A program made the position numbers and the translations under genes. Below, piece after piece: positions 5,352 through 32,114 of a DNA stretch of 64,000 nucleotides. The stretch spans positions 2,712 through 66,711 of the forward strand of contig DFXU01000007.1 of assembly GCA_002383285.1 (NCBI GenBank), given 5' to 3'. The stretch is from Bacillales bacterium UBA4100. GTDB taxonomy: Bacteria; Bacillota; Bacilli; Paenibacillales; UBA4045. The number at the start of each line of letters is the position of its first letter. Positions within the stretch are counted from its first letter, which is position 1. The notes under the pieces were generated by a model. The model saw nothing but the letters and a program-made list of their open reading frames with translations, had not been told where the DNA came from and did not search any database.

Positions 5352-5382
5352 GATGTAATCCTTCTTTCTAATTAGTTAGTAG

Positions 5383-6369: not shown

Positions 6370-6430
6370 TATATCTAACCCCTATCCATATCTCTATAAG
6401 TATCGTGTTCTATTTCGATTTATCTACACC

Positions 6431-9400
6431 TTACGCTGAGACAGATTCATCTTCAAGACGTACAGATACAAGCTTGGAAACGCCATGATCCTCCATGGTA
6501 ACACCATAGAGTACATCAGCCTCTTCCATCGTTCCTTTTCGATGTGTAACAACAATAAATTGTGTGTCCTCTGAAAATTCTCTAAGATATTCAGCAAATC
6601 GGGATACATTCGCTTCATCCAAAGCGGCTTCTACTTCATCTAGTACACAGAAAGGGACCGGCTTTATACGAAGAATTGCGAATAATAATGCGATTGCGGT
6701 TAAGGCACGTTCTCCACCTGATAGCAGCTGAAGATTTTGCAGCTTCTTGCCTGGCGGTTGGGCAACTATATCAATACCCGTTTCCAATAATTGATCAGGA
6801 TCAGCAAGCACAAGATCAGCACGTCCACCCCCGAACAAGCGAGTGAACACGATTGCGAATTGAATGCGGATCGCATCGAAGGTTGTGCGGAATCGCTTAG
6901 ACATCTCTTCATTCATATCGTGAATAACTTGGTATAATGTCGTCTTGGCTTCAATCAAATCTGCTTTTTGTGCACTCAAAAATTGGAATCTCTCATTCAC
7001 ACGCTGGAACTCCTCAATCGCTCCTAGGTTTACATCACCAAGTTTGGCGATTTCGCGCTTCAAATCCCTAACTAAATTCTGAGTCCCAAGAACATCCTCA
7101 GGAATTGGATAACGCTCCTTAGCAAGCTCATAGCTTAGCTCATATTCTTCAGATAGTTTCTTAAGGAGGCCGTCTAACTCAACATCAAGTCTATTCACAC
7201 GAACTTCCGTCTGATGCAATTGCTCTTCAATACGACGCAGGTTAGCACGCTGCTCACGAATATGGCTTTCTTCCTCATCCAATTGCTTAATACGCTCTGC
7301 CCGATCCGCTCGTTTATAATCAATTTCTTCCGAATTCGCTTTCTTATCAAGATGAAATTGATTCATTCTCTCAACCTGCTGTACAATTTCCAATTCATTC
7401 GAATCATAATCGCGTTGAAGCTGTTCAAGCAGGAGTACGCTGTTATTATGCTCAACTTGTGTGCTTTCCATATCCTGCTCGAATCGATGGAGTTGATCGG
7501 ATAATGATGCTCTCTCTTGCGCTAAGGCAGCTGTTCGAACCTTTAGGTCAGTTAGCTCTTCCTGCAATAATTCCTTCGTGGATTCGTTCATCTTTCTTGT
7601 TGTTTCTGCCTGCAGAATGGCTTCTTGAATACGAGCCTGCTCTTGCTCTAATAGGATGGATTGTTCAGCTAAAACTATTCTGCGCTCTGCAGCTTTCTTC
7701 TGATCAACCTCATGTCCATCATGGTCCTCATTATACATATCCAATTGGGCTTGAATATGATTCAATTCACTGTCAATTTGCTGTGAATCCGCCTTTATCT
7801 GCTGCTCTTCAATTCTCTTCTGCTCACCCTCCTGACGAAGATGATCTAGCGTAACTAGCAAATCAGCGCTTTCTTTTTTGATTACATTGTACTTCTCTCT
7901 CAATTCCTTGAGCTGCTGTTCTGTTAGAATAATTTCTTGCTGAATCGCTTCTATCTGCCGCTGACGTCCTAGCAGATTAGCCCCACGCTTCTGAAGCGTA
8001 CCACCTGTCATGGATCCACCAGCATTCACTACGTCGCCTTCCTGCGTTACTACACGGAACCTATACTTACATGAAGCCGCAATTCGATTGGCGTCCTCCA
8101 GCTGCTCTGCAATAATAATTTGACCGAGCAAGTTTCGAGCAATATCATCATATTGTGCATCGAATTGGATCAAATCAACAGCAACACCTACAAAGCCTTT
8201 CATTCCGCGCACTTGATTTAACTCATAGTCATTAATTGAACGACCTTTAATAACATCAAGTGGTAAGAATGTTGCTCTACCGAGTTGACGCTTTTTCAGA
8301 AAATTAATCGCTTCTCTTGCATCCGTCTCATTATTCATTACGATATGCTGAAGAGCTCCGCCTAGCGCAGTCTCGAGTGCAACTTCTACATGTGCCGGCA
8401 CCTTCAGAAGCTCGGCCACTGCACCATGTACTCCGCGGAGACCACCTGAAGAAGACCCACGGCTTTTCAGCACTTCTTTAACACCATGTATGAAACCATC
8501 ATAATCATTCTGCATCTCAGTCATTGTATCTCGACGAGAAACACTTGCATCCAGCTTCTGCTCCCACTTGCGTATCGCCTGTTGTACTTCCTCTATAAGC
8601 TGCTGGTCCTTGCGCATCTTCTCGCTTAATTGTAGATATTCATTGCGAATACGAGTAATCTGGGTGGCAAGCTGCTCCATCTGGAGAGCAACAGCTGATT
8701 TCTTCAGAACAAACTGCTCTCGCTGTTCCGTCCAACGTTCCTTCTCTTCAAGAATACGCTCTACCTTACGACCGATCCCTTCACTTTGCTGCTCCAAGAA
8801 TTTCAATTCATTGCGAACCTGAGCAATCTGATTCAAGGAATCGATTAATTCGGCCTTTAATTGTTCCTCAACAATTGAATCTCTACCGTTCACACCCAAG
8901 AGCTTATCTTCTTCCGTCTTAAGACTAGCCCTAAGCTCCGTCAATTGACGATTAACCTCACTAAATTTGCTCTGAACATCCTCCTTCTCCACCTTACGAT
9001 CATGCATACGTCGAGATTGGATGTCCATCGACTGATTCAATTGTTCTCGATTCGTAGTTAAATGCTTACGACGCTCGCGTAAAACCTCGACCTGACCAGA
9101 GCTCCTATCGAATTCCTCACTAACACTTAGGAGCGATTCATGCAGCCGCTCCAGCTCCTCCTCTACAATACGCAGCTCAGCCCTTGATTTCTCAAGACGA
9201 GCATCGTGACGATTCACTACAGTTGAGACTTCTAGCTGTTCATGCTCGAGCTGCTTTAGCTTATTCCCAGATTCCGTCCAAGAACGATGAAGCTGATCTA
9301 TCTGAACCACATACATTGATATTTCGTTAAATTTCAATTCTTCTTTAAGCTTCTTGAATTGTTGCGCAACCTCAGATTGCTCTCTTAATGGATCTAACTG

Positions 9401-10000
9401 ATCCTCAAGCTCAGTAATAAGATCATGGATGCGAAGTAAATTATTCTCTGTCTCATCCATCTTCTTCTGAGCTTCTTTTCTTCTTGACTTATATTTCACA
9501 ATCCCTGAGGCTTCTTCGAAGATTGCCCGACGATCCTCAGAGCGCGTGCTAAGTATTTCCTCAATACGACCTTGTCCAATAATCGAATACGCTTCTTTAC
9601 CAATACCGGTGTCCATGAATAATTCCGTTATGTCCTTTAATCTACAGGATTGTTTATTAATAAAATATTCGCTATCACCATTCCTATGGATACGCCGAGT
9701 TACGGTTACTTCACTGTAATCTAATGATAATCCGTGGTCTGTATTATCTAAAGTTAAAGAGACCTCGCCATAATTAACAGCCTTACGCGAATCGCTTCCA
9801 GAGAATATGATATCCTGCATATTACCGCCACGAAGTGACTTGGCGCTCTGCTCACCAAGAACCCAACGAATTCCATCGGAAATATTACTTTTGCCGCTTC
9901 CATTAGGGCCAACAACTGCGGTAATACCTTGAACAAATTCCAGTTCGGTTTTATCTGCAAAGGATTTAAATCCTGTTAGTTCAATGCGCTTAAGGAACAT
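6431..10000 (-). CDS. smc: Chromosome partition protein Smc
   Basis: 1189 aa with N-terminal Walker [10 protein letters not shown], very long coiled-coil arms, a central hinge, and the C-terminal LSGGE signature followed by Walker B ([12 protein letters not shown]). Confidence 0.97.
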
Positions 10001-10096
10001 GGTTTCACCCTATCTTAAATAATTAACAGACTCCTAGCTTATTCTATCATAATGCATAGCAAAAGAGCACTACAAACCACCCGTCACTCTTTGCAT

Positions 10097-10171
10097 AATA
10101 GCCTGATTTCTTATATTTAATTCATATGCCCGTTGGCACACTCATGAATTAGTCTAAGAAATCAGGCTATT
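10097..10171 (-). other. Long composite hairpin immediately 3' of rnc (candidate dsRNA processing element)
   Basis: A perfect 17-bp outer helix pairs 10097-10113 with 10155-10171. An 8-bp middle helix pairs 10118-10125 with 10144-10151. A 4-bp apical helix pairs 10127-10130 with 10135-10138. The right arm overlaps the rnc stop codon, and no T-run follows on the minus strand. Confidence 0.6.
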
Positions 10172-10868
10172 ATTGTTGTTGCTTCTGTTGTAGCTTGATT
10201 AGCGCTTGTGCAGCTGCCCGTTGCTCGGATTCTTTCTTACTTCGACCGATACCAGTTCCCATTACATTAGAATCAAATCTTACCTCAATGGTAAATTGTT
10301 TCTCATGAGAAGGACCGCTTTCCATGACTAGACAATATTCCGGTTTACTCAGGTTATTCTGCTGCGTATACTCCTGGAGCTGCGACTTAGCATCGGTTAT
10401 TTGGTCTGAATTCTCCAGCCTCAGCTTCATAAATAAATTAGATTGTAGAAACTGCACAACAGTCTCAAGCCCCTGATCCAAGTATAAGGCGCCAATGAAT
10501 GCTTCGAATACATCGGCGAGAATAGCAGGCTTTGACCTTCCACCTGTCGTTTCCTCACCTCTGCCAAGTAATAAATGTCTGCCGAAATGATGTTCGTCCG
10601 CAAGTAATTTCAGAGAGGGCTCACATACGATCGATGCCCTCATCTTCGTTAATTCACCTTCCGGAAGCTTTGGGAATTGCTCATAAAGATACTGAGTGAC
10701 TGTTAACTCTAGAACAGCATCTCCTAGAAATTCTAGTCGTTCATTATGCTTAGCTTGTTTGTTCTCATTCACATAAGAAGTATGGGTGAATGCTTGCTGT
10801 AACAAACTCAGATCATTAAACTTCACACCTAATTCAGCCTGGAGCTGTTGGAACATCTTCATAGGCAT
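10170..10868 (-). CDS. rnc: Ribonuclease III
   Basis: Carries the RNase III signature ERLEFLGDAVLE and a C-terminal dsRNA-binding domain. It abuts the fabF stop. Confidence 0.95.
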   Translation of the reverse strand: MPMKMFQQLQAELGVKFNDLSLLQQAFTHTSYVNENKQAKHNERLEFLGDAVLELTVTQYLYEQFPKLPEGELTKMRASIVCEPSLKLLADEHHFGRHLLLGRGEETTGGRSKPAILADVFEAFIGALYLDQGLETVVQFLQSNLFMKLRLENSDQITDAKSQLQEYTQQNNLSKPEYCLVMESGPSHEKQFTIEVRFDSNVMGTGIGRSKKESEQRAAAQALIKLQQKQQQ

Positions 10869-12106
10869 TACTCTTCGAATCGTTTCAGCACGATGGTTGC
10901 ATTATGACCGCCGAAGCCGAAGGAGTTAGAGAGAGCAATTGATATATCTGCTTTACGAGGTTTATTCGGAACATAATCTAAATCACATTCCGGATCTTGA
11001 TTTTCCAAGTTAATCGTTGGTGGGATGAACCCTCGAGTGATCGTTAGCGCTAATATTACAGCCTCTACTCCACCAGCCGCTCCGAGCATGTGACCCGTCA
11101 TAGACTTTGTTGAGGATACAGCTAGTTTATAAGCATGATCGCCGAACGTTTTCTTAATAGCGATGGTCTCGGATTTATCACCAACTGGTGTAGATGTACC
11201 ATGTGCATTAATATATTCAACTTGATCGGCATTGATTCCGGCATCCTTCAACGCACGAACCATACAACGGGCTGCACCATCGGGATCGGGATCCGTCATG
11301 TGATGAGCATCTCCACTCATACCATAACCGATAATTTCAGCATAGATATGTGCTCCACGTTTCTTCGCATGCTCAAGCTCTTCAATAACGAGCACACCAG
11401 CACCTTCTGACATAACGAAACCATCTCGATCGACATCGAATGGACGACTTGCCCGTTCAGGCTCATCATTCCTAGTTGACATCGCTCTCATCGCGCAGAA
11501 TCCTGACATACCCGTAGGACGAATCGTTGCTTCTGCTCCACCACAAACCATGACATCTGCTTCATCACGAAGAATAAGCTTATAGGCATCTCCGATCGAG
11601 TTCGTTCCTGTAGCACATGCTGTAACTACCGTGCTGTTCGGACCCTTAGCACCAGTGATTATAGATATTTGTCCAGAACCCATATTAGCAATCATCATCG
11701 GAATGAAGAACGGGCTAACACGCTTAGGTCCTCGCTCTAATAATATATTATGTTGATCCTCCCAAGTACCAAGTCCACCGATACCTGAACCTACATATAT
11801 CCCTGCTCGTTCAGGATCCATGTCTTCTCTAATATTCAAATTAGCGTCCTTAAGTGCCATTGTACTAGCAGCAACAGCAAACTGAACAAAGCGGTCCATT
11901 CTGCGAGTTTCCCGCTTATCCATATAATTCTCAGGCTCGAAATCTTTAATTGCACCAGCAATCGTTGTAGGATATTCACTTACATCAAAGCTCTCCACTT
12001 GTGAGATCCCTGATTTACCTGTCATCAGACTATCCCAGAACGTGTCTAAGTCCTTACCTATCGCTGACATAACTCCCATACCTGTAATAACAACTCTGCG
12101 TTTCAT
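10868..12106 (-). CDS. fabF: 3-oxoacyl-ACP synthase II
   Basis: 412 aa with active-site contexts TACATGTNS, NAHGTSTPVGD and GFGGHNA. Confidence 0.95.
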   Translation of the reverse strand: MKRRVVITGMGVMSAIGKDLDTFWDSLMTGKSGISQVESFDVSEYPTTIAGAIKDFEPENYMDKRETRRMDRFVQFAVAASTMALKDANLNIREDMDPERAGIYVGSGIGGLGTWEDQHNILLERGPKRVSPFFIPMMIANMGSGQISIITGAKGPNSTVVTACATGTNSIGDAYKLILRDEADVMVCGGAEATIRPTGMSGFCAMRAMSTRNDEPERASRPFDVDRDGFVMSEGAGVLVIEELEHAKKRGAHIYAEIIGYGMSGDAHHMTDPDPDGAARCMVRALKDAGINADQVEYINAHGTSTPVGDKSETIAIKKTFGDHAYKLAVSSTKSMTGHMLGAAGGVEAVILALTITRGFIPPTINLENQDPECDLDYVPNKPRKADISIALSNSFGFGGHNATIVLKRFEE

Positions 12107-12233
12107 CTATTTGACCACCTCAATATTCACGGCTAATGAAAGATTATATTATTAATGATGCTTATTCAAAAAAAGTACACAATGCATGAATACCTTAATC
12201 GAACAAGTCTCTAAGGGTGTAATTACAAGGAAT

Positions 12234-12264
12234 AGTCCCGCTAGCTTACGCTTTGAGCGGGACT
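12234..12264 (-). terminator. Stem-loop after acpP (possible partial terminator or attenuator)
   Basis: AGTCCCGCT pairs with AGCGGGACT (9 bp), starting 14 nt downstream of the acpP stop. The T-tract on the minus strand is weak. Confidence 0.4.
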
Positions 12265-12277
12265 ACGAGCAATTTCT

Positions 12278-12514
12278 TTAAGAGCGATTTGCCTCTATGT
12301 ACTTCACAACTTCGCCCACAGTTGTTACTTTCTCGGCGTCTTCGTCGGAAATTTCAATATCAAACTCATCTTCCAACTCCATAACTAACTCAACTACATC
12401 TAATGAATCAGCACCTAAATCATCTTTAAACGAAGCTTCAAGGGTTACTTCAGCTTCTTCAACTCCGAGGCGATCAATTACGATTTTCTTTACGCGATCT
12501 ACTACATCTGACAT
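12278..12514 (-). CDS. acpP: Acyl carrier protein
   Basis: Carries the phosphopantetheine-attachment motif [16 protein letters not shown] trimmed the start to ATG 12514, which follows GGAGGTG. Confidence 0.95.
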
Positions 12515-12602
12515 CCGGCTCACCTCCTCCATGGTATTATACGAAAATTAAAACGAAATTACCAGAGTGCTTGTTTATAGTGTTAGGAACAACAGTAATT
12601 CC

Positions 12603-13343
12603 TTACATATACATGCCACCATCTACATGCAGCGTCTGTCCTGTCATATAGGAAGCAGCACTGGATGCGAGGAACAATACAACATTGGCGATATCATCAG
12701 GTTTCCCAAGCTTTGCTAGTGGGATTTGCTGCAGCAAAGCTGCTTTTGCATCCTCAGGAAGCTTGTCAGTCATCTCAGTTTCAATGAATCCTGGCGCTAT
12801 ACAATTAACTGTAATATTACGTGATGCCAGCTCCCGAGCTGTTGCTTTGGTTAAACCAATAACACCCGCTTTGGCTGCTACATAATTTGCTTGACCAGGG
12901 TTACCCAGTACACCCACAACAGAGGATATATTAATGATCTTACCCGAACGCTGCTTCATCATCGGTCGAGTCACTGCTTTAATACAATTAAATACACCCT
13001 TCAGATTCGTATTAATTACATCATCAAATTCCTCTTCCTTCATTCGCATAATTAGATTATCCCGCGTAATCCCAGCATTATTCACCAGGATATCAATTGT
13101 TCCAAATTGCTCAATAACAGCTTTTATCATACTCTCAGCTTGCTCAGAATTCCCGACATGAGCTTGAATCTTCTCAGCTCTTCTCCCCATGCCTCTAATC
13201 AATTGTACAACTTCTTCAGCGGCGCTTTCACTTCCTGCGTAGTTGACAATAACATCAGCACCGGCCTTGGCTAATACTAGCGCTATTGCTCTACCAATGC
13301 CACGTGAAGCTCCTGTTACAAGTGCTACTTGACCATTAAGCAT
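12603..13343 (-). CDS. fabG: 3-oxoacyl-ACP reductase
   Basis: SDR protein with TGASRGIG and YVAAK catalytic motifs, sitting between fabD and acpP. Confidence 0.93.
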
Positions 13344-13378
13344 GTGATATCTCCTTCTTCGTATATCAATTGTTTGTG

Positions 13379-14308
13379 TTATCTGCTAATAAAGTTGTTG
13401 ATTGCTTCTATACTGTCCAACGTATAGCAGCTTACATCTTTATTAATTTTCTTGTTTAAACCAGTTAGCACGCTTCCAGACCCTACCTCTACGAAAGTAT
13501 CCACTCCATCAGCGATCATACGGTTGATACAATCCTCCCATAGTACTGGGGAGTACACTTGCTGTACTAATAGGTCACGAATTACATCCGAGTGTACAAC
13601 AGGCTCGGCTGTAACATTAGCGACGACAGGTATTGCTGCATCCTGGAATGCTAGTCCTCGCAGAACTTCATCGAGCTTCGCAGATGCGGGCTTCATTAAT
13701 GAGGAATGAAATGGACCGCTGACAACAAGGGGAATGACCCTCTTCGCCCCTATACCTCTGCCTTGATCTACCACTGCTTGAACTCCTTCACTGCTGCCAG
13801 AAACTACAATCTGACCAGGACAATTTACATTTGCAAGCTCAACTACTCCAGTATCCCTCGTTATTGTAGCACATAATGAAGCTAGAGCATCTCGATCAGC
13901 ACCTAGAACAGCAGCCATTGCCCCTAGACCCGCGGGAACAGCTTGATCCATGAATTCACCTCTGAGACGAACCGTTCTCACGGCATCCTCGAATGTCAGA
14001 ACACCGGCAACAACAAGAGCGCTATACTCACCTAAGCTGTGCCCTGCTACATAATCTGGTCGAATTTCAGCAGAACGGAGTAATTCGTAATAAGCAATGC
14101 TCGTTGTTAATAATGCTGGCTGTGTATGATAAGTTAGCCTAAGCTGATCCTCTGGACCCTGAAAGATTAGATTCGTTAATGAATAGCCTAATACTTCATC
14201 CGCTTTATCGAATACGTGTCTAGCCAATGCATTAGTATCATAGGCATCAAGTCCCATGCCAACCGATTGTGCACCCTGCCCTGGGAAGATTAGCGCTAAT
14301 TTACTCAA
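13379..14308 (-). CDS. fabD: Malonyl CoA-ACP transacylase
   Basis: Contains FPGQGAQ and GHSLGEYSA motifs. The probable start is TTG 14308, 8 nt after GGAGG; the ORF-track start at 14326 has no RBS. Confidence 0.9.
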
Positions 14309-21497: not shown

Positions 21498-21668
21498 CGG
21501 TTATCCTTAATATATCGGCGTCGAGAGATGTCGTAGATAACCGCGGAGAAGACTTACGTTTCCCCATAAGATCTTCATCCGGTTTCTCCTCTCCCATGAG
21601 GTGCCCTGCAAGGGGCACCGATATAATCAACACCGCTTAGCCTCAGAGCTCTGCGGTTTTTTCTTGTT
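21498..21668 (+). ncRNA. Candidate orphan structured RNA ending in an intrinsic terminator (family unknown)
   Basis: No credible ORF is present. Helices pair 21498-21505 with 21536-21543 (8 bp), 21544-21556 with 21567-21581 (13 bp, two bulged A), and 21600-21606 with 21613-21619 (7 bp, GC-rich). A hairpin at 21632-21657 is followed by T6, which reads as a terminator only on the plus strand. Confidence 0.4.
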
Positions 21669-22470: not shown

Positions 22471-24633
22471 TCACTGCCTAGAATCATTCCAATCCATATC
22501 CGCATCAAGCGCTACGCTCATGGGAACTACACCGCAAGAAGCATCGGTGCAATCTCGGAAGCGATTCGATGCTGCAATCCGTCTTTGTCTCATGCGCAAG
22601 CTATTCATTCGAGTCTGAGCTAGCTCTGCTCGCAGAACACGCAGATTCTCAGACGATCGCGTAAGATGACCCATAGCAAATTGCTCAGCGTCTAACAAGT
22701 CTATACGCTTATTACGGAATTGCAGATGCAGCAGATCAGCATCCTGTAAGTAGAGAATGTCTCCATCACGGAAGGCCTCTGGTGTCATATGGCCAATCGC
22801 CGCACCGTAGGTAACACCTGAATAGCGTCCATCACTAATTAGAGTCGCTAACCGTTTGAGCTGACGATGAGCATTAATATGCTGCATCGGCGTGAACATT
22901 TCCGGCATCCCGAATGCTTCAGGTCCTTGGCCAGAGATAACAATAGCCAGCTTAAGCCATTCATTGCTGACCGATTTATCGAAAATCTCTTCATAATTCA
23001 ACAGCTTAAGCTCATTCGTATTCATGTTAGCATTATGGTTAGCCATAACAATCAAATGTTCCAGTTTGAATATTCGTTTCGATTTTAATTTATCCAATAA
23101 GTGAATATCTAATAGATGCTGGTTAGCTTGCTCCTCATTCTCGAAGTAAAGAATGAAAGCCACTTTGTTATCGAATTGATCCAATTGCTTTGTTGGCATC
23201 CCGCTTACTTTTACTACAGCCTGATTAAAGAAATTACCTCTCAATACATCAACACCACTAAATTGACGTCTTGGCTTACTCAGGATAATCGGATTATCCT
23301 TCACACCATCCGCGCTAAGCCCTTCAGTGTTTGCAAGCCTTTCCCGCCAGGTTTGACCACTCACGGTAGGAGCATCCAGATCCATGGGTACACCATTACG
23401 CCCAAGCTCATAGATCAGTGTTTCCATCCCGCGAATTTCACCTGAGCAGCATTGCTGTGCAAGCGCATAGATGTCTCGTCCCTCTGTGAGGCTATAATCA
23501 TACAAGTCAGGAATGGGATACTCCATCAATACACGCTCAATGTCCTCAAGTGAAAAATCATATCCAGCATATATCATTGCACCAACCATATGCATAATCA
23601 GATTAGACGACCCACCACTAGCACTATGAAGCCTGATTGTATTCTTAATATTAGCAATCACTAGCTTGCTTACGCTAAATTCTCGTTTATTCACTATGAA
23701 GAATAGCGCTTCTATTGCCTTATCAACCTGCATGAATGTTGGAGGGTCTGTCAACAGCTCAAGGGCTGGATATACGACACCAAATCCTGCCGTGACTTCT
23801 CTAGAGCTGTTCCCTGTTCCATGGAATGCGCATATTCCACCCTTGGCATCACAAGTATTCACAGCGAGACTTTTCTCGAAAAACTTTTGCTGCTCCTCGG
23901 TCAATATGCCTCTTTCGATCGCTCTTAGGAATACACCCTGGAATGCCGTATTCGACGAACACTGCAGAATATAGCTAACAGCTTCATCGATATCTGATGC
24001 AATATCATCATAACCCGCCACAGTCGCAAGTGACGCTAATTGAGCCAGCTCCCTTCTCAGGTCATCTGGAATGCTGCCACCCTTAAGTACATGGGAAGGG
24101 CAGAAGCTAGCGAATACAGGTGCTTCCCCCCGATATTGTCTTACACGATCTAGATGAGCGAGACCACTTAACACACCGAGCGGCTGTTTATCACAGCCCT
24201 GAATAACGAATGCACCATGATAGGAATGGGCTTCCATCTGATTCACGACCATCTCAGCAATTACGTTACGGCTCTGCAGCGAGTATGACATCCCCATATT
24301 ACTCTGTGCGGTTCCATCACACAGCACAGGCGTACTGAAATAGAATGGGACTCCACCATGCTTCCATATACTAATAGCAGCTTTGGATACGGTTTCATAA
24401 TCAAGAATATGCGCAGGGTGATCTGAGGAGCCGCCGATAATAGCAATCCGAGGAGCATTGTATTCAAGTCGATCATATATGTTCTCCAGCGTCCAATCTG
24501 ATGGACCTCCTGTATAATCCGCTCCCAACTCGCGTCGGGATCGATCTAGAAGTCCAGCAACAGTTATTGGCTCGTTGGCCTTTCCTTGTACATTATCTCT
24601 GTAAGGATTAATATCGCTATTCATCTTAATCAT
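22471..24633 (-). CDS. IlvD/Edd-family dehydratase, long YjhG/YagF-like (sugar-acid dehydratase-like) variant
   Basis: 720 aa with family motifs LCDGTAQSNMGM, QGCDKQPLG, GGICAFHGTGNS and LISDGRYSGVTYGAAIGHMTPEA. It also carries an extra internal segment and a basic C-terminal tail. Confidence 0.8.
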   Translation of the reverse strand: MIKMNSDINPYRDNVQGKANEPITVAGLLDRSRRELGADYTGGPSDWTLENIYDRLEYNAPRIAIIGGSSDHPAHILDYETVSKAAISIWKHGGVPFYFSTPVLCDGTAQSNMGMSYSLQSRNVIAEMVVNQMEAHSYHGAFVIQGCDKQPLGVLSGLAHLDRVRQYRGEAPVFASFCPSHVLKGGSIPDDLRRELAQLASLATVAGYDDIASDIDEAVSYILQCSSNTAFQGVFLRAIERGILTEEQQKFFEKSLAVNTCDAKGGICAFHGTGNSSREVTAGFGVVYPALELLTDPPTFMQVDKAIEALFFIVNKREFSVSKLVIANIKNTIRLHSASGGSSNLIMHMVGAMIYAGYDFSLEDIERVLMEYPIPDLYDYSLTEGRDIYALAQQCCSGEIRGMETLIYELGRNGVPMDLDAPTVSGQTWRERLANTEGLSADGVKDNPIILSKPRRQFSGVDVLRGNFFNQAVVKVSGMPTKQLDQFDNKVAFILYFENEEQANQHLLDIHLLDKLKSKRIFKLEHLIVMANHNANMNTNELKLLNYEEIFDKSVSNEWLKLAIVISGQGPEAFGMPEMFTPMQHINAHRQLKRLATLISDGRYSGVTYGAAIGHMTPEAFRDGDILYLQDADLLHLQFRNKRIDLLDAEQFAMGHLTRSSENLRVLRAELAQTRMNSLRMRQRRIAASNRFRDCTDASCGVVPMSVALDADMDWNDSRQ

Positions 24634-25222: not shown

Positions 25223-26008
25223 CTATTCTATTCGATAAAATCTTCGTGTGTTTTCATTTATAATGCTAGCTGCCTTCAGAGGGTCTAGGCCTTTCAGTAC
25301 AGCAATTTCGTGAACCACATCCCTAACCATACTAGGTAATGTGGTCTTTCCTTTGAAGTGAGCCTCGAATGGCCATGGACCGTCGGTTTCTACCATAAGC
25401 TGTTCAATTGGATAAATCCGAACTAGCTCTCTAATTTCTTCTTCGTAACAAACATCAGGTGATATGGATATGTAATAACCGTTCCTAGCCATCCTCTTAA
25501 CTGTGTGCTCTGGACCCTTGAACCAGTGAAAATGTGCAGTAGTAACGCAGTGCTTCTCCAACAAACCACATACAATGTCTGCGTCCTCATAAACAGCATG
25601 AAGGATGATCGGTTTATTCAATTCGATAGATAACAGAATAAATCTCTCAAGCAAGGAAATATACGGATTAAGATTATACGATATTCCCTTTGCCTCAAAT
25701 TCTGTTCGAGTATAATAAGGTAAACCAACCTCTCCAATAGCAATAGCCTCCGTATGATGCTCGCGGATCCATGCGAATAATTGCTGTTCAACCTCCATAT
25801 CGGGAATGGGCTGCTCAGGATGGTATCCAAAGGCAGGTAAGTACATGCCAGAGTATGCATGAGCTAACTCTAGATTTGTTCTACATGAATCCTGATGTAA
25901 GGAAACAGCAATTATTGCCTCTACATTGACACCTAACTGCTCTAATAATTGCTTTCGATCATCCAAGCTATAAAGATCGGGATGAATGTGTGCATCAATC
26001 CATTTCAT
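25223..26008 (-). CDS. TatD-family metal-dependent hydrolase
   Basis: 261 aa with motifs DAHIHPD, GEVGLPYY, ILHAV and VETDGPWPF. Its start overlaps the stop of the upstream ABC ATPase gene (ATGA). Confidence 0.8.
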   Translation of the reverse strand: MKWIDAHIHPDLYSLDDRKQLLEQLGVNVEAIIAVSLHQDSCRTNLELAHAYSGMYLPAFGYHPEQPIPDMEVEQQLFAWIREHHTEAIAIGEVGLPYYTRTEFEAKGISYNLNPYISLLERFILLSIELNKPIILHAVYEDADIVCGLLEKHCVTTAHFHWFKGPEHTVKRMARNGYYISISPDVCYEEEIRELVRIYPIEQLMVETDGPWPFEAHFKGKTTLPSMVRDVVHEIAVLKGLDPLKAASIINENTRRFYRIE

Positions 26009-26775
26009 ATGATTGTCTCCTTCTTCATCAGACTATATATGTGTGCTCGCAAACGTATAAAGTCGCTATGCTGTAGAATATCTTCCCCTCGCGGACGTTG
26101 GAATGGGACAATTATCTCTTCAAGTACGCCAGTAGGTTTTTCTGAGAACACGTATATGCGATCAGACAAGAATAGGGCTTCTTCAATGCTGTGAGTTACG
26201 AATAGCACAGATCTTCTGGAGTCCTCCCAGAGTGCAAGCAACCAACGTTGCATATCCATCCTTGTAAGTGCGTCTAATGCACCGAAAGGCTCATCCAAAC
26301 ACATCACCTCTTGCGGACTTAGTAGTGCCCTTAGAAAGGCAACACGCTGCTGCATACCTCCAGATAATACATCTGGGTATGCTGACTCATAGCCCTGAAG
26401 TCCGACTCTTGCTAACCATTCCTTAGCTAGCTCGCGCGATTGCTTCTTGCTCGAGACTCCCGAAACCTCCATCGCAAGGACAGTATTCTCTAATACGGTT
26501 CTCCATGGGAATAACGAGTGCTGCTGGGGTACATAACTGATATGTCCTCTCCTGCCTGTTATATCCTTACCATCTAATAGAATTTCTCCTAGGTCAGGTT
26601 GCAGCAGTCCCCCGATCATATGGAACACAGTGCTCTTTCCACTTCCAGAAGGTCCAATTATCGAAACAAACTCTCCCTCGTTGACATAGAGAGAAAGCTC
26701 CTTAATCACGAAATTATCCGCTCCTAGGTTACTGAACGATTTACCAATACCTCTTACCTCCAGCTTAGGCTGCAT
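26005..26775 (-). CDS. thiZ: ABC transporter ATP-binding protein (NitT/TauT family, ThiZ-like)
   Basis: Contains Walker A GPSGSGKST, signature LSGGMQQR and Walker B MCLDEP. ATG 26775 overlaps the permease stop (TAATG) and follows AAGGAGGGA. Confidence 0.8.
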   Translation of the reverse strand: MQPKLEVRGIGKSFSNLGADNFVIKELSLYVNEGEFVSIIGPSGSGKSTVFHMIGGLLQPDLGEILLDGKDITGRRGHISYVPQQHSLFPWRTVLENTVLAMEVSGVSSKKQSRELAKEWLARVGLQGYESAYPDVLSGGMQQRVAFLRALLSPQEVMCLDEPFGALDALTRMDMQRWLLALWEDSRRSVLFVTHSIEEALFLSDRIYVFSEKPTGVLEEIIVPFQRPRGEDILQHSDFIRLRAHIYSLMKKETII

Positions 26776-27557
26776 TAGCTTCCCTCCTTGACAGAGCGAG
26801 AATTCCAACGAATAATGAGCTTCTGTAATATCACAATCAAAGCATACATGAGCAAGCTTAGCGTGACGATTACGAACACTACTGTGAATACTCGGTCATT
26901 ACGAAAACTCTTATATGAAAGAACCATGTAACGGCCTAATCCACTGCTACCACCAAGCCATTCGGCAATTACAGCACCCATCACGCTATAGGTTGCAGAA
27001 ATCTTCAATCCAGCGAACAGGTAAGGAAGTGAGAATGGGAGCTCTAGCTTCGTGAAGATTTGACGGCGGCTGGCGCCTATCATACGCATATAGTTAAATA
27101 AGCTTCGATCAGTCTCAACAAGACCTGTGGTCATGGATACAACAATGGGGAAAAAACATACAAGTACTACTACAATAATCTTTGGGAACATCCCGTAACC
27201 GAACCATACTACAAATAGAGGAGCAAGTACGATCATAGGAATGTTCTGCGAGATAATAAGCAATGGCGAGAAAGCAGATTTAATTGGCTTGGACAAGTGC
27301 ATAACAACAGCGATCATTACCCCAGCAAGCACACCAGTCGGAAAACCGATTAATATCTTCTGAAGTGTTGATGTTGTATGCAACCACAAACGAGGCCATG
27401 AAATAATACCCTCACGGATAATATCCGTAGGGCTTGGAAGAAACCACTTTTCAATTCCTAGCCAGTTAACAAGTAACTCCCAACTAGTTAAGATAAGGAT
27501 AACCGCCACTATGGGCGGCCATCCTTTGTTAACTACATTAATTAATGTTCTACTCAT
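26775..27557 (-). CDS. thiX: ABC transporter permease (NitT/TauT family, ThiX-like)
   Basis: 260-aa polytopic membrane protein sitting between the binding-protein genes and the ATPase gene. Confidence 0.8.
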   Translation of the reverse strand: MSRTLINVVNKGWPPIVAVILILTSWELLVNWLGIEKWFLPSPTDIIREGIISWPRLWLHTTSTLQKILIGFPTGVLAGVMIAVVMHLSKPIKSAFSPLLIISQNIPMIVLAPLFVVWFGYGMFPKIIVVVLVCFFPIVVSMTTGLVETDRSLFNYMRMIGASRRQIFTKLELPFSLPYLFAGLKISATYSVMGAVIAEWLGGSSGLGRYMVLSYKSFRNDRVFTVVFVIVTLSLLMYALIVILQKLIIRWNSRSVKEGS

Positions 27558-27850
27558 TATCGATCATACTTCTCTGTCAGCTTGTCCATCGAGACACCGC
27601 TTGGACCATACAGAATCTTGATTTGTGAGATAACACTCGGACAGCCTTCAGCTATCATCACTTCATTCATTTCCTTAACAACATTAAGTAGCTGGTCAAG
27701 CTCCCCCTCCATCGTCGTTTCTAGTGGTGCCACACGGTACTTTACTCCAGATCGGTCAATAACGGCTATTGCCTTATCTACGTAAGGAATAACATCCTCA
27801 TTGTTCTTAGTTCGCGGGATAATCTGAATACTTACAAGCGCATTTGCCAT
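27557..27850 (-). CDS. MTH1187/YkoF-family (DUF77) thiamine/HMP-binding protein
   Basis: 97 aa counted from ATG 27850, which follows AGAGGAG. The sequence MANALVSIQIIP...YRVAPLETTMEGE is typical of the family. The ORF-track start at 27919 would overlap thiY. Confidence 0.7.
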   Translation of the reverse strand: MANALVSIQIIPRTKNNEDVIPYVDKAIAVIDRSGVKYRVAPLETTMEGELDQLLNVVKEMNEVMIAEGCPSVISQIKILYGPSGVSMDKLTEKYDR

Positions 27851-27878
27851 GTGTAAGCTCCTCTCTTTAATGGATACA

Positions 27879-28907
27879 TTATTCTGGTAGGTAATCATTC
27901 GTGAACGCTTTTGCTGCATCGAATGTTCCTTCTAATAGATTGTACTTCGTCATCCAATCAGCATAATTGTTCCATACTTCAAGCTTCTGCTCTCCCCAAC
28001 GAGGGGCATCATCCTGGTATCGTGTGCTTAACCATTGTTGGCTTGCCTTCACTAGCTCTGCATTCAAGTCAGGCTCAGCCTTCACGAATAGGTCTGCAGC
28101 CTTCACCGGTTCATCCATTGCGAATTGATAGCCCTGTGCTGTTGCTTTCATGAATGCCTTAACGGTATCAGGCTCATCAGCAATCATCTTTTCATTCGTA
28201 ACCAAAACTGGAGTGTAATAATCCAATTCAATTGCATAGTCACGTAAGTAAACCATATCAATCTCATCACCACGAAGCTCTGCCTCTACACCTGTCCAAG
28301 CATAATATATCCATGCGAAGTCTATGTCTCTCTTAACGGCCGTGAAGAAATCGGCATCACCGATGCTTACATTCTCAACCTTGGTTGGATCTGCATTCTC
28401 ATTTAGCATCATGGATTCAAGCATTGCATCCTCTACTGGGGAGCCCCAGCCGCCATATACCTTACCTTCGAAATCCTTGGGTGATTTAATATTCTTACTA
28501 ACGGGTGTTGCAAAACCAGAGGTATTATGCTGGATTACCGCAGCTATTGATACAAGCGGTACATTCTGAGTACGCGCTAATGTCACCGACTCCTGATAGC
28601 TTACACCAAATTGAGCATTACCAGCAGCAACCATCGTATCAGCACCTGATTCACCTGGTTGTACAATGGTTACATTCAAGCCTGCTTCCTCATAATAACC
28701 ATTATCTCTTGCAACATAAAGCCCAGTATGATTTGTATTTGGAGTCCAATCAAGAACTACAGTAATCTCTTGTAATTTCTTGCTATCATCCTTCTTATCC
28801 GTTCCGGCTTCCTTCTCATTCGTATTCCCACAACCAATAACCGTTACTTGAACAACTACAAGCATCATCAATAATACTAATTTTGTTGCCTTGTTAATCT
28901 TAAACAT
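27879..28907 (-). CDS. thiY: Lipoprotein substrate-binding protein, NMT1/THI5-like (ThiY-type pyrimidine-precursor binding protein)
   Basis: Has a signal peptide with a lipobox (VIGC) and the DWTPNTNHTGLYVA motif. It is the first gene after a TPP riboswitch. Confidence 0.8.
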   Translation of the reverse strand: MFKINKATKLVLLMMLVVVQVTVIGCGNTNEKEAGTDKKDDSKKLQEITVVLDWTPNTNHTGLYVARDNGYYEEAGLNVTIVQPGESGADTMVAAGNAQFGVSYQESVTLARTQNVPLVSIAAVIQHNTSGFATPVSKNIKSPKDFEGKVYGGWGSPVEDAMLESMMLNENADPTKVENVSIGDADFFTAVKRDIDFAWIYYAWTGVEAELRGDEIDMVYLRDYAIELDYYTPVLVTNEKMIADEPDTVKAFMKATAQGYQFAMDEPVKAADLFVKAEPDLNAELVKASQQWLSTRYQDDAPRWGEQKLEVWNNYADWMTKYNLLEGTFDAAKAFTNDYLPE

Positions 28908-29034
28908 GTGCATCTCTCCATTCTCTCTATTTGTCCCTTAACCTTTTACCATAATCTGCTCTCTCTCATAGGCGTCATTAAACATAGAAAAGACGCCCCT
29001 CAAGAGGAAAGCGCCATAAGTCACATAGATCGAT

Positions 29035-29135
29035 TCAGTCCGATTCCTACGCTGGCATTATCCAGATCAGGTTGCGGGTCAGTATCTTGAGGGATACTCT
29101 CTCAGCCGGCCAATTCCAGCTCCCCGTGGAAAACT
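29035..29135 (-). promoter_or_regulatory. TPP (THI-box) riboswitch
   Basis: The minus strand reads CACGGGGAGCUGG..GGCUGAGAGAGUAUCCC..GACCCGCAACCUGAUCUGGAUAAUGCCAGCGUAGGAAUCGG. It contains the conserved CUGAGA and ACCUGAUCUGGAUAAUGCCAGCGUAGG cores. Confidence 0.88.
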
Positions 29136-29156
29136 ATTAGGTTAGTTACATGAATC

Positions 29157-29184
29157 AGTATAGCATAATGGTTGCGATTGTCTA
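29157..29184 (-). promoter_or_regulatory. Promoter for the TPP-riboswitch operon
   Basis: On the minus strand, TAGACA (29184-29179), a 16-nt spacer, then TGcTATACT as an extended -10 (TATACT = 29162-29157). The -35 element overlaps the TAG stop of the upstream nucleotidase gene. Confidence 0.55.
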
Positions 29185-30078
29185 TTGTTTCTTGTATGGC
29201 ACTCTAGCGACGGGTACGTGCTGTGAGGCAGGACCAAGGTGCACATCCTGGTCGTCAAAGAAAATATGAGCCCCAAACGCTTGCAGAACCTCTGCTTTAG
29301 ATACCCCACCGAGGAAGAAGGCTTCATCAATTCGCACATGCCATTCCCTGAGTGTGCGAATGACTCGTTCATGAGCAGGGCTATTCCGTGCAGTTACAAG
29401 AGCAGTGCGTATTGGAGATTTCCCCGCTTCAATGTGGTGCTGTAGGTAAGAGATCGTTTTTAATAACTTGGCAAAAGGACCCTCTGGCAGCATCTTTCGA
29501 GCGTTATCCTTCTCATGCTTCAAGAATGCATCTAGTCCTTCATTCTTATATATAAGTTCAGACTCATCGGAGAATAGCACCGCATCTCCATCAAAGGCAA
29601 CCCTGATTTGATCAATGTCAGATTCATATAACTCGGGATGTGTGTAGATGAATCCAGCAGCTACATTAGCATCAATCGCAGCTTGAACATCCTCTTCTGA
29701 AGCCGACAAGAATAAATCAATATCAAAGGCCTTTAGGTAAGGTGCTAATGATGCACCGCCAGTTAATGCGGCACGGGTAATATCTAAGCCATAGTGCGCG
29801 ATGGAATTAAATATTCTCATACTCGTATCCGCTGTATTCCGAGACATGATAATAACCTCTGTCTTACGATCATCCGGGAACAATTCATTCAAGCGAAGTA
29901 ATGCACGAACTAAAGGAAACCCACTGCCTGGCTTTAATACATCATCCTCGTGCTCGTGCTGATAGGCAATGTATGGTTCTAAACCTTCATTCATAAAGAT
30001 GTTATCCTCAAGAGATAGATCGAATAACGCACGAGAAGATATCCCAATAACCAGAAACTTAGTTAAATCATATGCCAT
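29182..30078 (-). CDS. 5'-nucleotidase family protein (the PF06189-like family, as I recall it)
   Basis: 298 aa. The sequence (LVIGISSRALFDL..., FDGDAVLFSDESE, TARNSPAHERVIRTL, FFDDQ) matches my memory of the bacterial cytosolic 5'-nucleotidase family. Confidence 0.65.
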   Translation of the reverse strand: MAYDLTKFLVIGISSRALFDLSLEDNIFMNEGLEPYIAYQHEHEDDVLKPGSGFPLVRALLRLNELFPDDRKTEVIIMSRNTADTSMRIFNSIAHYGLDITRAALTGGASLAPYLKAFDIDLFLSASEEDVQAAIDANVAAGFIYTHPELYESDIDQIRVAFDGDAVLFSDESELIYKNEGLDAFLKHEKDNARKMLPEGPFAKLLKTISYLQHHIEAGKSPIRTALVTARNSPAHERVIRTLREWHVRIDEAFFLGGVSKAEVLQAFGAHIFFDDQDVHLGPASQHVPVARVPYKKQ

Positions 30079-30102
30079 GAATGAAATGCCCCCTGCCCCG
30101 AT

Positions 30103-30789
30103 TTAAACAATCGAACGTAACTGCGAGAGCTCACGAATGTGATATAGCGGCGTATATTCCTCATCAATCACCGTGCCCAGTGGATTATAGAAACAAAAGT
30201 CAATTCCGGCATTCTTGGCACCATGATAATCATCATTCAAGGAGTCCCCTACGAACAGCACTTGCTCTCTAGACACCTTCAGATCCTCCAACGCCAGCTC
30301 GAAGATTAATGAATCTGGTTTATTCACACCAACCTCATCGGATATCATCAGGGAATGGAAGAATCCATCAATTCCACAGGCTTGTAATCTCTTGCGCTGT
30401 GAATCACCATATCCGTTCGTAATCATACCTATTCGATATAAGCTACTTACATAGGTTAGAATTTCGTGAGCGCCAGGTTCGAAATGACAGATGCTACAGA
30501 ACAAATCCCAATATGCTTGTGCAAGCACATCCGCAAGCTTGCTATCGCCTAAGTAAGCATGAAGCGCATCTCGGAATGTGAATAAAGTTAGTTCCGACCT
30601 AGTTAGCGTATGTCGTCTTTCCCAATATGACCAATTAATGGGGTCATAAACCTTGCTGAAATCATTCCAGGAAATCTCTTGCTCGTCAATGATCTGATGT
30701 GTAAGTAACGTTTGCCTTAAAGCGTCCTGCTCACAACGATTATAATTGATTAATGTATTGTCAAAGTCGAATATGATCGCCTTGTAGAT
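30103..30789 (-). CDS. HAD-IA phosphatase (YjjG-like nucleotidase type) with no canonical start codon
   Basis: The ORF track gives only 141 aa, starting at GTG 30528. The reading frame stays open upstream to a TGA at 30798-30796 and encodes catalytic motif I (AIIFDFDNTL). Only ATC 30789, 7 nt after AGGAGTG, sits where the Met is expected. Motifs ITNG and GDSLNDD lie downstream. Confidence 0.6.
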   Translation of the reverse strand: MYKAIIFDFDNTLINYNRCEQDALRQTLLTHQIIDEQEISWNDFSKVYDPINWSYWERRHTLTRSELTLFTFRDALHAYLGDSKLADVLAQAYWDLFCSICHFEPGAHEILTYVSSLYRIGMITNGYGDSQRKRLQACGIDGFFHSLMISDEVGVNKPDSLIFELALEDLKVSREQVLFVGDSLNDDYHGAKNAGIDFCFYNPLGTVIDEEYTPLYHIRELSQLRSIV

Positions 30790-30832
30790 ACTCCTTCACT
30801 CCTATCTTGATGGTAGTCTGTGATGTGATATA

Positions 30833-31432
30833 TTAAGGCGCTAAGTATCCCTTGGCTACAGACGATCGAATCAGCTCCTCAGCAAATTCCCATAAGATCT
30901 CTGACCCTTCAGCGATATGTGCATTCGCCTCCATCACTTGACTACTCGTAATACCATGCTTCTTCCATGCTGCTCCTTCTGTATAGTAATTATGCAGCAA
31001 AGGCTGCAACCGATCTAGGGAAGTTGCGAACAGAGCCTCCGATGTTTCCTTTTCTTCAAACTCATCCCATAATTGACGAATTTCCTCGTGTTGATCTTCT
31101 GGTAGCAGATCGAAAATACGGTTGGCAGCTGCCTGTTCACGTACCGATTTATCCTCTCGTCCGACCGAATCATATAACATCGTATCTCCTGCATCAATCT
31201 CTACAATATCGTGGATCAATACCATTCGTATGACTCGCATAACATTCAAGTCCGGCTCATTCGCATGCTCACACAGCATCATCGCGAACATCGCTAAGTG
31301 CCAAGAATGCTCTGCCGTATTCTCTAATCGTGATTTGTTTGTAACCATCGTCCGACGAAGAATCAGCTTCAACTTATCAATCTCCATAAGGAAGTTAATT
31401 TGTTGCTTTAATCGTTCTACATATTCTGTCAT
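30833..31432 (-). CDS. HD-domain phosphohydrolase (YfbR/HDDC2-like 5'-deoxynucleotidase family)
   Basis: Contains ENTAEHSWHLA and LIHDIVEIDAGDT metal-binding motifs. ATG 31432 follows GAGGAGAAG. Confidence 0.75.
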   Translation of the reverse strand: MTEYVERLKQQINFLMEIDKLKLILRRTMVTNKSRLENTAEHSWHLAMFAMMLCEHANEPDLNVMRVIRMVLIHDIVEIDAGDTMLYDSVGREDKSVREQAAANRIFDLLPEDQHEEIRQLWDEFEEKETSEALFATSLDRLQPLLHNYYTEGAAWKKHGITSSQVMEANAHIAEGSEILWEFAEELIRSSVAKGYLAP

Positions 31433-31436
31433 AAGG

Positions 31437-32114
31437 TCACTTCTCCTCACATGGATGGGTAATGTTAACGATAATGTCCTCTAACCCAATATCCTCCATA
31501 GACGCTAATCGTAAATCATGGGTCAAGAACTCGAGCTGACTTGTCACCGGATTCGGAACGATGACACAATAGATATCCGCAGCTTTAGCTGCGAGAAGAC
31601 CATTCAACGAATCCTCAAAGACGATAGCCTCTGAGTTCTTCACACCAAGATGCTCAAGCGCTTGGAGATAAAGCTCGGGATTTGGCTTCACTTGTGCTAC
31701 GTCATCTTTCGTTCTTATCACGTGAAAGTAAGAGTATATCTCATACTTCTTCAGATATGATTCAACCCAACTCCGACTCGAGCTTGAAGCAAGTCCAATT
31801 CGTAAACCAAACCTCTGTGCTGTCTGCAAATAATTGATTACACCAGGCCGAACTTGCATGGATTGAACAAGAATATGATACTTTTTTTCTGCTTGCTGTT
31901 TAAAGAATACTCGATCAACCTTCTTACCAATTTGTCGCTCCAGGTAATCTAGGGGATGAAAGTAACCGGAGTTTGTCGTTCCAATGCCTTTCGCCCACTC
32001 TTCTAGCGGCAATTGTGCACCTAGCTCCTCGAACGTCTGTCGATAAGAATGATAACCAGGTGTCTCTGTATCTAAGATAAGTCCATCGAAATCGAATATG
32101 ACTGCTTTAATCAT
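31437..32114 (-). CDS. HAD-IA phosphatase (beta-phosphoglucomutase-like subfamily)
   Basis: Contains motif I VIFDFDGLILDTE, motif II GLASSS, and EDSLNG. ATG 32114 lies 5 nt after AAGGGGTGA. Confidence 0.8.
   Translation of the reverse strand: MIKAVIFDFDGLILDTETPGYHSYRQTFEELGAQLPLEEWAKGIGTTNSGYFHPLDYLERQIGKKVDRVFFKQQAEKKYHILVQSMQVRPGVINYLQTAQRFGLRIGLASSSSRSWVESYLKKYEIYSYFHVIRTKDDVAQVKPNPELYLQALEHLGVKNSEAIVFEDSLNGLLAAKAADIYCVIVPNPVTSQLEFLTHDLRLASMEDIGLEDIIVNITHPCEEK

Follow-up and report, generated by a model that had tools for sequence, protein, structure and literature searches.

A TPP-riboswitch operon of Bacilli that joins a thiamine-type ABC importer to a divergent TatD-family hydrolase

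ThiXYZ of B. halodurans is an ABC import system whose binding protein, ThiY (PDB 3IX1), binds FAMP. As described by Jenkins et al. 2007, in the form in which that work is cited in PMC5627462, it pairs an NMT1-fold binding protein with a permease and an ATPase of the NitT/TauT type and is controlled by a TPP riboswitch, and the operon described here appears to share all of these features. The present operon differs in that it is unlinked to tenA and is found where pyrimidines are unusable. The C. difficile binding protein in PDB entry 4NMY, which is described as thiamin-bound (PMC10586155), likewise appears from sequence comparison to share the NMT1 fold, the ABC system, and apparent thiamine binding with the protein studied here. 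No accessory TatD is described for the C. difficile system.

The five-gene architecture itself has appeared once before. RNA-seq of B. methanolicus defined (TPP)-tauA-x-tauC-tauB-tatD as one transcription unit, which is identical in architecture to the present operon and also lies behind a TPP riboswitch (PMC4342826). The unit is given there as a table row only, labelled 'ABC transporter', and its function and conservation are undiscussed; this uncommented row is the sole trace of the riboswitch-importer-tatD pairing found in the literature. Judged by its architecture, the B. methanolicus tatD would be an ortholog of TatD2, the divergent TatD-family hydrolase considered below.

Architecture of the riboswitch operon

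The window is the whole stretch of DNA that was analysed, 64,000 nucleotides in length. It contains five genes that, as predicted from sequence, form a TPP-riboswitch-attenuated operon with its own promoter and terminator (Table 1). The aptamer matches the Rfam covariance model RF00059 at full length with 64.6 bits (gathering threshold 54.3; E 2.2e-10), and it is accompanied by an expression platform and by a downstream thiY-type gene, which is thiamine-related. The promoter-like site agrees with the consensus at 10 of 12 positions and abuts the aptamer on its 5' side. The terminator-like hairpin of the expression platform has an 8-pair stem (29015..28992) followed by TTTTCTATGT. An earlier, sequence-only reading of this DNA had proposed a TPP aptamer with its own promoter, and both elements are found at, or a few bases from, the coordinates given then.

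Table 1. Elements and genes of the TPP-riboswitch operon (window coordinates)
Feature	Coordinates	Strand	Description
Sigma-70-type promoter-like site	29157..29184	-	TAGACA, 16-nt spacer with TG extension, TATACT
TPP riboswitch aptamer (THI element)	29027..29136	-	RF00059, model positions 1-105 of 105
Expression platform, terminator-like hairpin and U-run	28982..29015	-	Transcription attenuation (predicted)
NMT1/ThiY-type substrate-binding lipoprotein, 4NMY type	27879..28913	-	PF09084, 259 bits
MTH1187/YkoF-type small cytoplasmic thiamine/HMP-binding protein	27557..27850	-	PF01910
ABC permease (ThiX type)	26775..27557	-	BPD_transp_1, PF00528, 113 bits
ABC ATPase (ThiZ type)	26005..26775	-	PF00005, 118 bits
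TatD2, divergent TatD-family metal-dependent hydrolase	25223..26008	-	PF01026, 168.1 bits vs cut-off 27

The ThiY-type protein carries the lipobox VIGC in its translation. The YkoF-type protein scores 86.3 bits against the Thiamine_BP family (cut-off 24.9), 72 bits to 1YQH, and 50.7 bits against TIGR00106, slightly below the cut-off of 54.7. Its gene probably starts at the ATG at 27850, which is preceded by GAGAGGAG, and would encode a product of 97 aa. Stop and start codons overlap as TAATG at both the YkoF/permease and the permease/ATPase junctions, with the ATPase ATG at 26775 preceded by AAGGAGGG. At the ATPase/TatD2 junction the stop and the ATG overlap as ATGA, and GGAGAC stands ahead of the TatD2 start. 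Gene identities by Pfam, together with these junctions, bear out the earlier description of five tightly packed genes with an ATPase/TatD overlap. The domain matches also agree with it that neither tenA nor ylmB is present in the five-gene operon. Within thiZ there is a weak promoter-like site (26061..26032), so TatD2 could also be expressed independently of the riboswitch.

The importer and its cargo

The sequence-only reading had taken the importer for a ThiXYZ system that brings in FAMP or another pyrimidine precursor, with TatD2 replacing YlmB, TenA, or an HMP-P phosphatase. Several features are compatible with such salvage: the amidohydrolase superfamily takes in amide hydrolases, ylmB and tenA are missing from the operon, and the NMT1/ThiY fold is common to the window's binding protein and the FAMP binder 3IX1. 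In addition, PMC5627462 describes proteins of the YkoF type as binders of the HMP moiety. The binding protein itself argues against this premise. It aligns end to end with thiamin-bound C. difficile 4NMY at 350.7 bits (E 6.6e-104), with about 60% identity by inspection, versus 110.6 bits to 3IX1. Thus, from sequence, the ThiY-type lipoprotein is a probable thiamine binder.

Genomes that retain the operon point the same way. Genome G001, which is 99% complete, is without ThiD, ThiE, ThiC, TenA, ThiL, and ThiT but has TPK, and its sole TPP riboswitch heads the importer-TatD2 operon. Genome G161 is without ThiD, ThiE, ThiC, TenA, and ThiL, also has TPK, and keeps the operon intact, TatD2 included. 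Since both lack ThiD and ThiE, pyrimidine salvage would be of no use to them. The importer also occurs in four more TPK-positive genomes without ThiE or ThiD (G214, G242, G255, and G267), and in G398 a TPK gene lies inside such an operon, 109 nt after thiZ. Some TatD2 genomes have TenA and others do not, and the congener G002 has its own salvage operon behind a separate riboswitch (tenA-ykoEDC-thiF-thiE-thiG-thiO-thiD), which includes the YkoEDC pyrimidine importer.

The 4NMY-type match and the retention of the operon in TPK-only genomes together indicate that the importer probably takes intact thiamine. Its identity as a ThiXYZ importer for FAMP/HMP salvage is disfavoured, because the binding protein is far from 3IX1 and the operon occurs without TenA, ThiD, and ThiE. 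Pyrimidine salvage is accordingly very improbable as an account of the locus, and a role for TatD2 as a deformylase or TenA substitute is unlikely. Dephosphorylation, the other activity offered in the sequence-only reading, survives for a thiamine phosphate and falls away for a pyrimidine precursor.

Conservation of the thiXYZ-TatD2 linkage

The gene block thiY-ykoF-thiX-thiZ lies upstream of tatD2 in 75 of the 80 best loci examined, and the genes are directly adjacent in 68 of those 75. A TPP aptamer is found at 74 of the linked loci, and the remaining locus is cut by a contig end. Recurrence of the five-gene order behind a TPP riboswitch at 75 of 80 related loci places the arrangement far above chance. 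Among 401 sampled Bacilli genomes, the same block occurs in about 40, which represent nine GTDB families (f1, f16, f22, f29, f31, f41, f56, f59, and f64). The proposed tie between the TatD gene and the riboswitch operon therefore extends to many other genomes, in at least nine Bacilli families.

All 91 linked TatD2 rows of the tree fall in one clade (98% SH-aLRT) with 18 unlinked rows scattered inside it, and the basal rows are unlinked. This topology suggests a single old linkage followed by scattered losses, of which the tree holds about a dozen. The 4NMY-type ThiY accompanies core-clade TatD2 in 60 of 66 genomes and is absent from the other six, compared with its presence in 91 of the remaining 335. 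Where core-clade TatD2 has moved off thiY (genera g17, g108, and g62; genome G151), no TPP riboswitch is found and the neighbours are unrelated.

The same distribution bears on the possibility that TatD2 is a general Bacilli nuclease or phosphoesterase with no thiamine role, placed beside the importer by ancestral chance and inherited vertically. TatD2 belongs to a wide paralog family, present in 128 of the 401 genomes and mostly unlinked and riboswitch-free, and its repeated separation from the importer also speaks for this possibility. It has the fold and ligands of a TatD nuclease, and no thiamine-related fusions were found for it. However, the coupled adjacency has persisted in families as far apart as Paenibacillaceae, Caryophanaceae, and Bacillaceae, whose proteins share 45-57% identity, and neutral gene order does not usually last so long. 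Core-clade TatD2, even when unlinked, is found alongside the importer in 91% of genomes. The attenuator, moreover, would let thiamine switch off a housekeeping nuclease, and a canonical YabD is already encoded in the host genome. Chance adjacency is for these reasons rather improbable, although the pocket residues described below lend it some weight.

TatD2 and its candidate substrates

Characterised TatD-family enzymes are metal-dependent phosphoesterases. TatD2 is the second TatD paralog in its genome, with 28% identity to the housekeeping YabD. It scores 149.9 against TIGR00010, under the cut-off of 206, and so lies outside the curated YchF/TatD DNA exonuclease subfamily; against the E. coli TatD/YcfH/YjjV equivalogs it reaches 52-79 bits, where the cut-offs are 395-481. 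The metal ligands H7, H9, E93, H137, H161, and D209 do not vary across 113 rows, and in the alignment they coincide with those of YabD. The AF2 model (pLDDT 96.3) is a TIM-barrel with a TM of 0.86 to TATDN3 (2Y1H). Around this intact catalytic centre the pocket is remodelled and aromatic-lined, with Y13, P97, W162, K164, P184, W212, and F214 in place of YabD T, D, C, S, G, Y, and T. These residues are identical, and equally conserved, in linked and in basal never-linked TatD2, which implies that the activity is older than the linkage and may be general.

Thiamine pyrophosphokinase accepts free thiamine only. ThiL was not found in G000, G001, G002, G019, or G047, all five of which have TPK, and the host genus has neither ThiL nor ThiT, which leaves TPK as the only route to the cofactor. 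Since TPK needs free thiamine, the likeliest job of TatD2 in such genomes would be to free thiamine from an ester. An independent source likewise notes that thiL is missing from Paenibacillus, which has to dephosphorylate ThMP (PMC5627462). The tenA-ykoEDC operon of G002 contains no phosphatase, so TatD2 is the sole hydrolase of the G002 riboswitch regulon.

In the proposed mechanism, the 4NMY-type ThiY lipoprotein would catch extracellular thiamine or a closely related vitamer, and the permease and ATPase would bring it in. The YkoF-type protein and TatD2 would serve as cytoplasmic accessories, held at a fixed ratio by translational coupling. TatD2 would then release free thiamine for TPK by hydrolysing an esterified form of the vitamin, with thiamine monophosphate, either imported or ThiE-made, as the best candidate substrate. 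Taken whole, this picture of an intact-B1 uptake operon in which TatD2 releases thiamine from an ester vitamer stands about evenly between right and wrong. Action of TatD2 on some thiamine vitamer is slightly favoured, while its assignment to ThMP or another phosphate ester is tentative at best. It is similarly doubtful, though worth naming, that TatD2 is a dedicated thiamine-vitamer esterase, likeliest the missing ThMP phosphatase of TPK-only Bacilli, which would work alongside the 4NMY-type importer and the YkoF-type binding protein. If true, this would give the TatD family its first physiological function on a small molecule rather than as a nuclease.

An expected anticorrelation between ThiL and TatD2 is not borne out, and absence of ThiL is no predictor of TatD2. 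Both are present in 25 Paenibacillales genomes, and of the nine linked families, f41 and f64 have ThiL; its lack in the other seven is no different from the 65% background. Within family f10, the ThiL/TatD2 split is 67% versus 45%. Retention of TatD2 in ThiL-positive genomes would be accounted for if the enzyme served damage control, hydrolysing a co-imported damaged or toxic thiamine analogue or its phosphorylated form. Oxythiamine-type or bacimethrin-derived compounds would be candidate substrates, and the role would resemble that of the thiamin-linked Nudix enzyme, a thiamin-cluster precedent in the form cited in PMC5627462. [quoted passage not shown] However, damage control explains the unlinked, unregulated TatD2 copies no better than thiamine release from an ester does, and it is quite improbable.

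TatD2, read as a hydrolase of thiamine esters, can be compared with two described groups of enzymes. Like TatD, YcfH, YabD, and TATDN3 (PF01026; 1YIX, 2Y1H, 4P5U), it is a TIM-barrel protein (TM 0.82-0.87) of about 260 aa with the ligand set HxH/E/H/H/D, and it differs from them by its family-specific pocket and riboswitch-controlled operon context. With the HAD-family thiamin monophosphate phosphatases (Hasnain et al. 2016, to the extent cited in PMC5627462) it would share the proposed role of supplying free thiamine for TPK without ThiL, as well as clustering with thi genes. The folds of the two are unrelated (HAD versus amidohydrolase TIM barrel), and TatD2 clusters with an importer rather than with thiD or thiE.

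Riboswitch operon and neighbouring features

The sequence-only reading described a TPP-riboswitch operon ending in a translationally coupled TatD gene, and Rfam matches, gene calls and junctions recover all of its elements (see table). The aptamer is followed by a hairpin and U-run, so the switch probably acts by transcription attenuation. Profile searches of the window's proteins place five minus-strand genes downstream of the aptamer. The last three junctions, read from the sequence, are the overlaps TAATG, TAATG and ATGA, which indicate translational coupling.

Immediately ahead of the riboswitch promoter sits a run of phosphohydrolase genes whose conservation extends no further than the closest relative (locus L004); the run thus does not belong to the thiamine operon. 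Its YjjG-like protein is a listed ORF without the N-terminal motif.

Features of the thiamine operon and its surroundings in the window
Feature	Position	Strand	Description
ylbH leader	21541-21665	minus	Rfam match, 62.5 bits
IlvD/Edd-family dehydratase	22471-24633	minus	720 aa; well below all NCBIfam cut-offs, matches in several stretches
Gene 5	25223-26008	minus	TatD-family protein, PF01026 (TatD2)
Gene 4	start 26775	minus	ABC ATPase
Gene 3		minus	permease
Gene 2	probable true start (ATG) 27850	minus	MTH1187/YkoF-type protein, PF01910; 97 aa
Gene 1		minus	NMT1/ThiY-type lipoprotein; lipobox visible in translation
Terminator-like element	29015..28992	minus	hairpin and U-run
TPP aptamer	29136..29027	minus	Rfam, full-length; 64.6 bits, gathering threshold 54.3
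Promoter-like element	29184..29157	minus	TAGACA/TG-TATACT
Phosphohydrolase gene run	29182-31450	minus	PF06189 5'-nucleotidase; YjjG-like HAD protein; HD_3 protein

Linkage of tatD2 to the importer

TatD2 is one of two TatD proteins in the genome. The YabD-like copy scores 314 bits to PF01026 and TatD2 168 bits; the two share 28% identity, and TatD2 falls below the NCBI TatD/YchF exonuclease cut-off. TatD scores across Paenibacillales are bimodal, with TatD2 orthologs at 166 bits or more and YabD types at about 80 bits, and TatD2 is present in about 100 of 151 genomes. Phylogenetic and linkage checks upheld the association with thi genes: thiY-(ykoF)-thiX-thiZ lies upstream of tatD2 in 75 of the 80 best loci (contigs from one genome per species), directly adjacent in 68 of these, and the same riboswitch-importer-tatD2 block occurs in about 40 genomes from nine GTDB families in a 401-genome Bacilli sample. 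In that sample, 91% of the genomes with core TatD2 also have the importer. Linked taxa include Paenibacillus, Cohnella, Thermobacillus, Brevibacillus, Rummeliibacillus and Neobacillus, and some linked operons lack ykoF (L022, L041, L114). All complete linked loci contain a TPP aptamer; in some it is an ATCTGA variant that narrowly misses the Rfam threshold. In Bacillus methanolicus, (TPP)-tauA-x-tauC-tauB-tatD is a single RNA-seq-defined unit (Irla et al., PMC4342826). This conserved synteny supports a functional tie between TatD2 and the B1 operon.

In a quick IQ-TREE run rooted on YabD, the basal TatD2 branches are unlinked, and a clade with 98% SH-aLRT contains all 91 linked entries plus 18 scattered unlinked ones. 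The tree broadly matches taxonomy, and its simplest reading is one old linkage event followed by about a dozen losses. Unlinked copies have unrelated neighbours, with no riboswitch beside them in the 10 loci examined. Remote representatives lie mostly on short metagenomic contigs; one (253 bits) sits behind metK with no thi genes near.

Several loci depart from the common layout. An opposite-strand insert of a tyrosine integrase and an HD-domain gene (~5800-7800) parts thiZ from tatD2, and so uncouples them, in five linked loci of the P. macerans/P. barengoltzii group (L010, L012, L014, L015, L043). Aptamers of the P. alginolyticus group (L019, L032, L051, L062, L080; ~4900-5000) carry ATCTGA for ACCTGA; their identity to the L040 aptamer (55.3 bits) is 94%. 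TatD2 appears split into two frames in one genome (G022:C8:454124-454911) and has one in-frame TAA in another (G117:C3:1012709-1013488); both may be pseudogenes.

Cargo of the importer

The sequence-only reading took the cargo to be pyrimidine precursors, but the binding protein and the gene content of importer-bearing genomes point to intact thiamine instead. The window's binding protein matches 4NMY end to end at 350.7 bits, versus 110.6 bits for the FAMP-binding ThiY 3IX1. 4NMY is a Clostridioides difficile protein reported with thiamin bound (PMC10586155). In G001, a 99% complete genome of the same GTDB family, ThiD, ThiE, ThiC, TenA, ThiL and ThiT were not found and TPK was; its sole TPP riboswitch heads the importer operon with an intact TatD2. 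G161, from another family, repeats this pattern, and four further genomes with TPK and without ThiE or ThiD carry the importer. Locus L143 (G398:C1:4056500-4065000), ordered TPP-ykoF-thiX-thiY-thiZ, encodes TPK (PF04263 and PF04265; 3445-4086, plus strand) 109 nt after thiZ, which ties this importer type directly to intact thiamine.

The congener G002 has a second TPP operon, tenA-ykoE-ykoD-ykoC-thiF-thiE-thiG-thiO-thiD (L112, G002:C86:124000-139000; 4403-13423, minus strand), whose tenA-ykoEDC genes serve pyrimidine salvage separately from the importer operon. No thiC was found anywhere in the G002 genome, which marks the genus as an HMP auxotroph whose pyrimidine salvage runs through this separate system. 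The "ThiXYZ" label on operons of this type is thus probably wrong, and the intact-thiamine reading bears on genome-based prediction of B1 auxotrophy and cross-feeding.

Importer operons of the 4NMY type (L134-L153) occur in two gene orders. The order thiY-ykoF-thiX-thiZ can carry tatD2, and ykoF-thiX-thiY-thiZ never did in the loci examined.

Candidate function of TatD2

The AlphaFold model of TatD2 is a confident TatD TIM barrel (pLDDT 96.3), and the metal ligands H7, H9, E93, H137, H161 and D209 are invariant among TatD2 proteins. The active-site pocket, which the sequence-only reading proposed to inspect, is remodelled relative to YabD, and the nearest folds belong to the TatD family only. 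Residues Y13, P97, W162, K164, P184, W212 and F214, just after the barrel strands, are T, D, C, S, G, Y and T in YabD, and these differences are systematic across the family. The structure search matched human TATDN3 (TM 0.86) and YcfH (TM 0.82), and no small-molecule enzyme came nearer. Isoelectric point and net charge do not differ between TatD2 and YabD.

TatD2 is kept in complete thiamine auxotrophs, which cannot use pyrimidine, so in them a role in pyrimidine salvage is out of the question; the deformylase role first suggested for it is not supported. The best mechanism is a putative thiamine-vitamer hydrolase, in which TatD2 would release thiamine from one of its phosphate esters, ThMP being the simplest candidate. 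This is favoured because ThiL is absent from the hosts examined, which use TPK, because TPK requires thiamine in its free form, because the TatD enzymes characterised so far are metal-dependent phosphoesterases, and because TatD2 is the only hydrolase under TPP riboswitch control in G002. A published Paenibacillus analysis likewise finds ThiL absent and ThMP in need of dephosphorylation (PMC5627462).

A serious rival is that TatD2 is a housekeeping "hitchhiker" in the importer operon. A housekeeping nuclease under thiamine repression would be odd, and the long-kept translational coupling and the 91% co-occurrence also speak against it, but it stays serious because ThiL status predicts TatD2 no better than phylogeny, relocated copies lie among unrelated genes and have no riboswitch, pocket residues are equally conserved in never-linked members, and a search of longer proteins gave one uninformative HPr-kinase fusion.

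Two further ideas were set aside. Replacement of ThiL by TatD2 was dropped as support because the expected anticorrelation tracks phylogeny: in Paenibacillales, TatD2 occurs in 25 of 57 ThiL-positive and about 78 of 94 ThiL-negative genomes, the TatD2/ThiL split in family f10 is 67% versus 45%, and ThiL is absent in 7 of 9 linked families versus a 65% Bacilli background. Non-orthologous displacement of TatD2 was rejected, as the genes after thiZ in 20 4NMY-type operons without it encode no other hydrolase, only TPK (once), DinB, DUF4303, a sigma factor, thioredoxin, CtsR and unknowns.

Full-text literature on TatD with thiamin or with riboswitches yielded a B. methanolicus table row and otherwise unrelated papers; TatD goes unmentioned in the Paenibacillus thiamin-genomics paper (PMC5627462) and the OarX salvage paper (PMC11223231). 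The riboswitch-controlled, coupled and conserved place in a B1 uptake operon offers a concrete, cheaply testable hypothesis for one TatD clade. Across all life, the default annotation of TatD-family proteins is DNase, and we know of no physiological role for most paralogs (YcfH, YjjV, TATDN3). TatD2 is a candidate for the ThMP phosphatase step needed by Paenibacillus and many other ThiL-less Bacilli, a step that, to our knowledge, is elsewhere carried out by HAD enzymes only.
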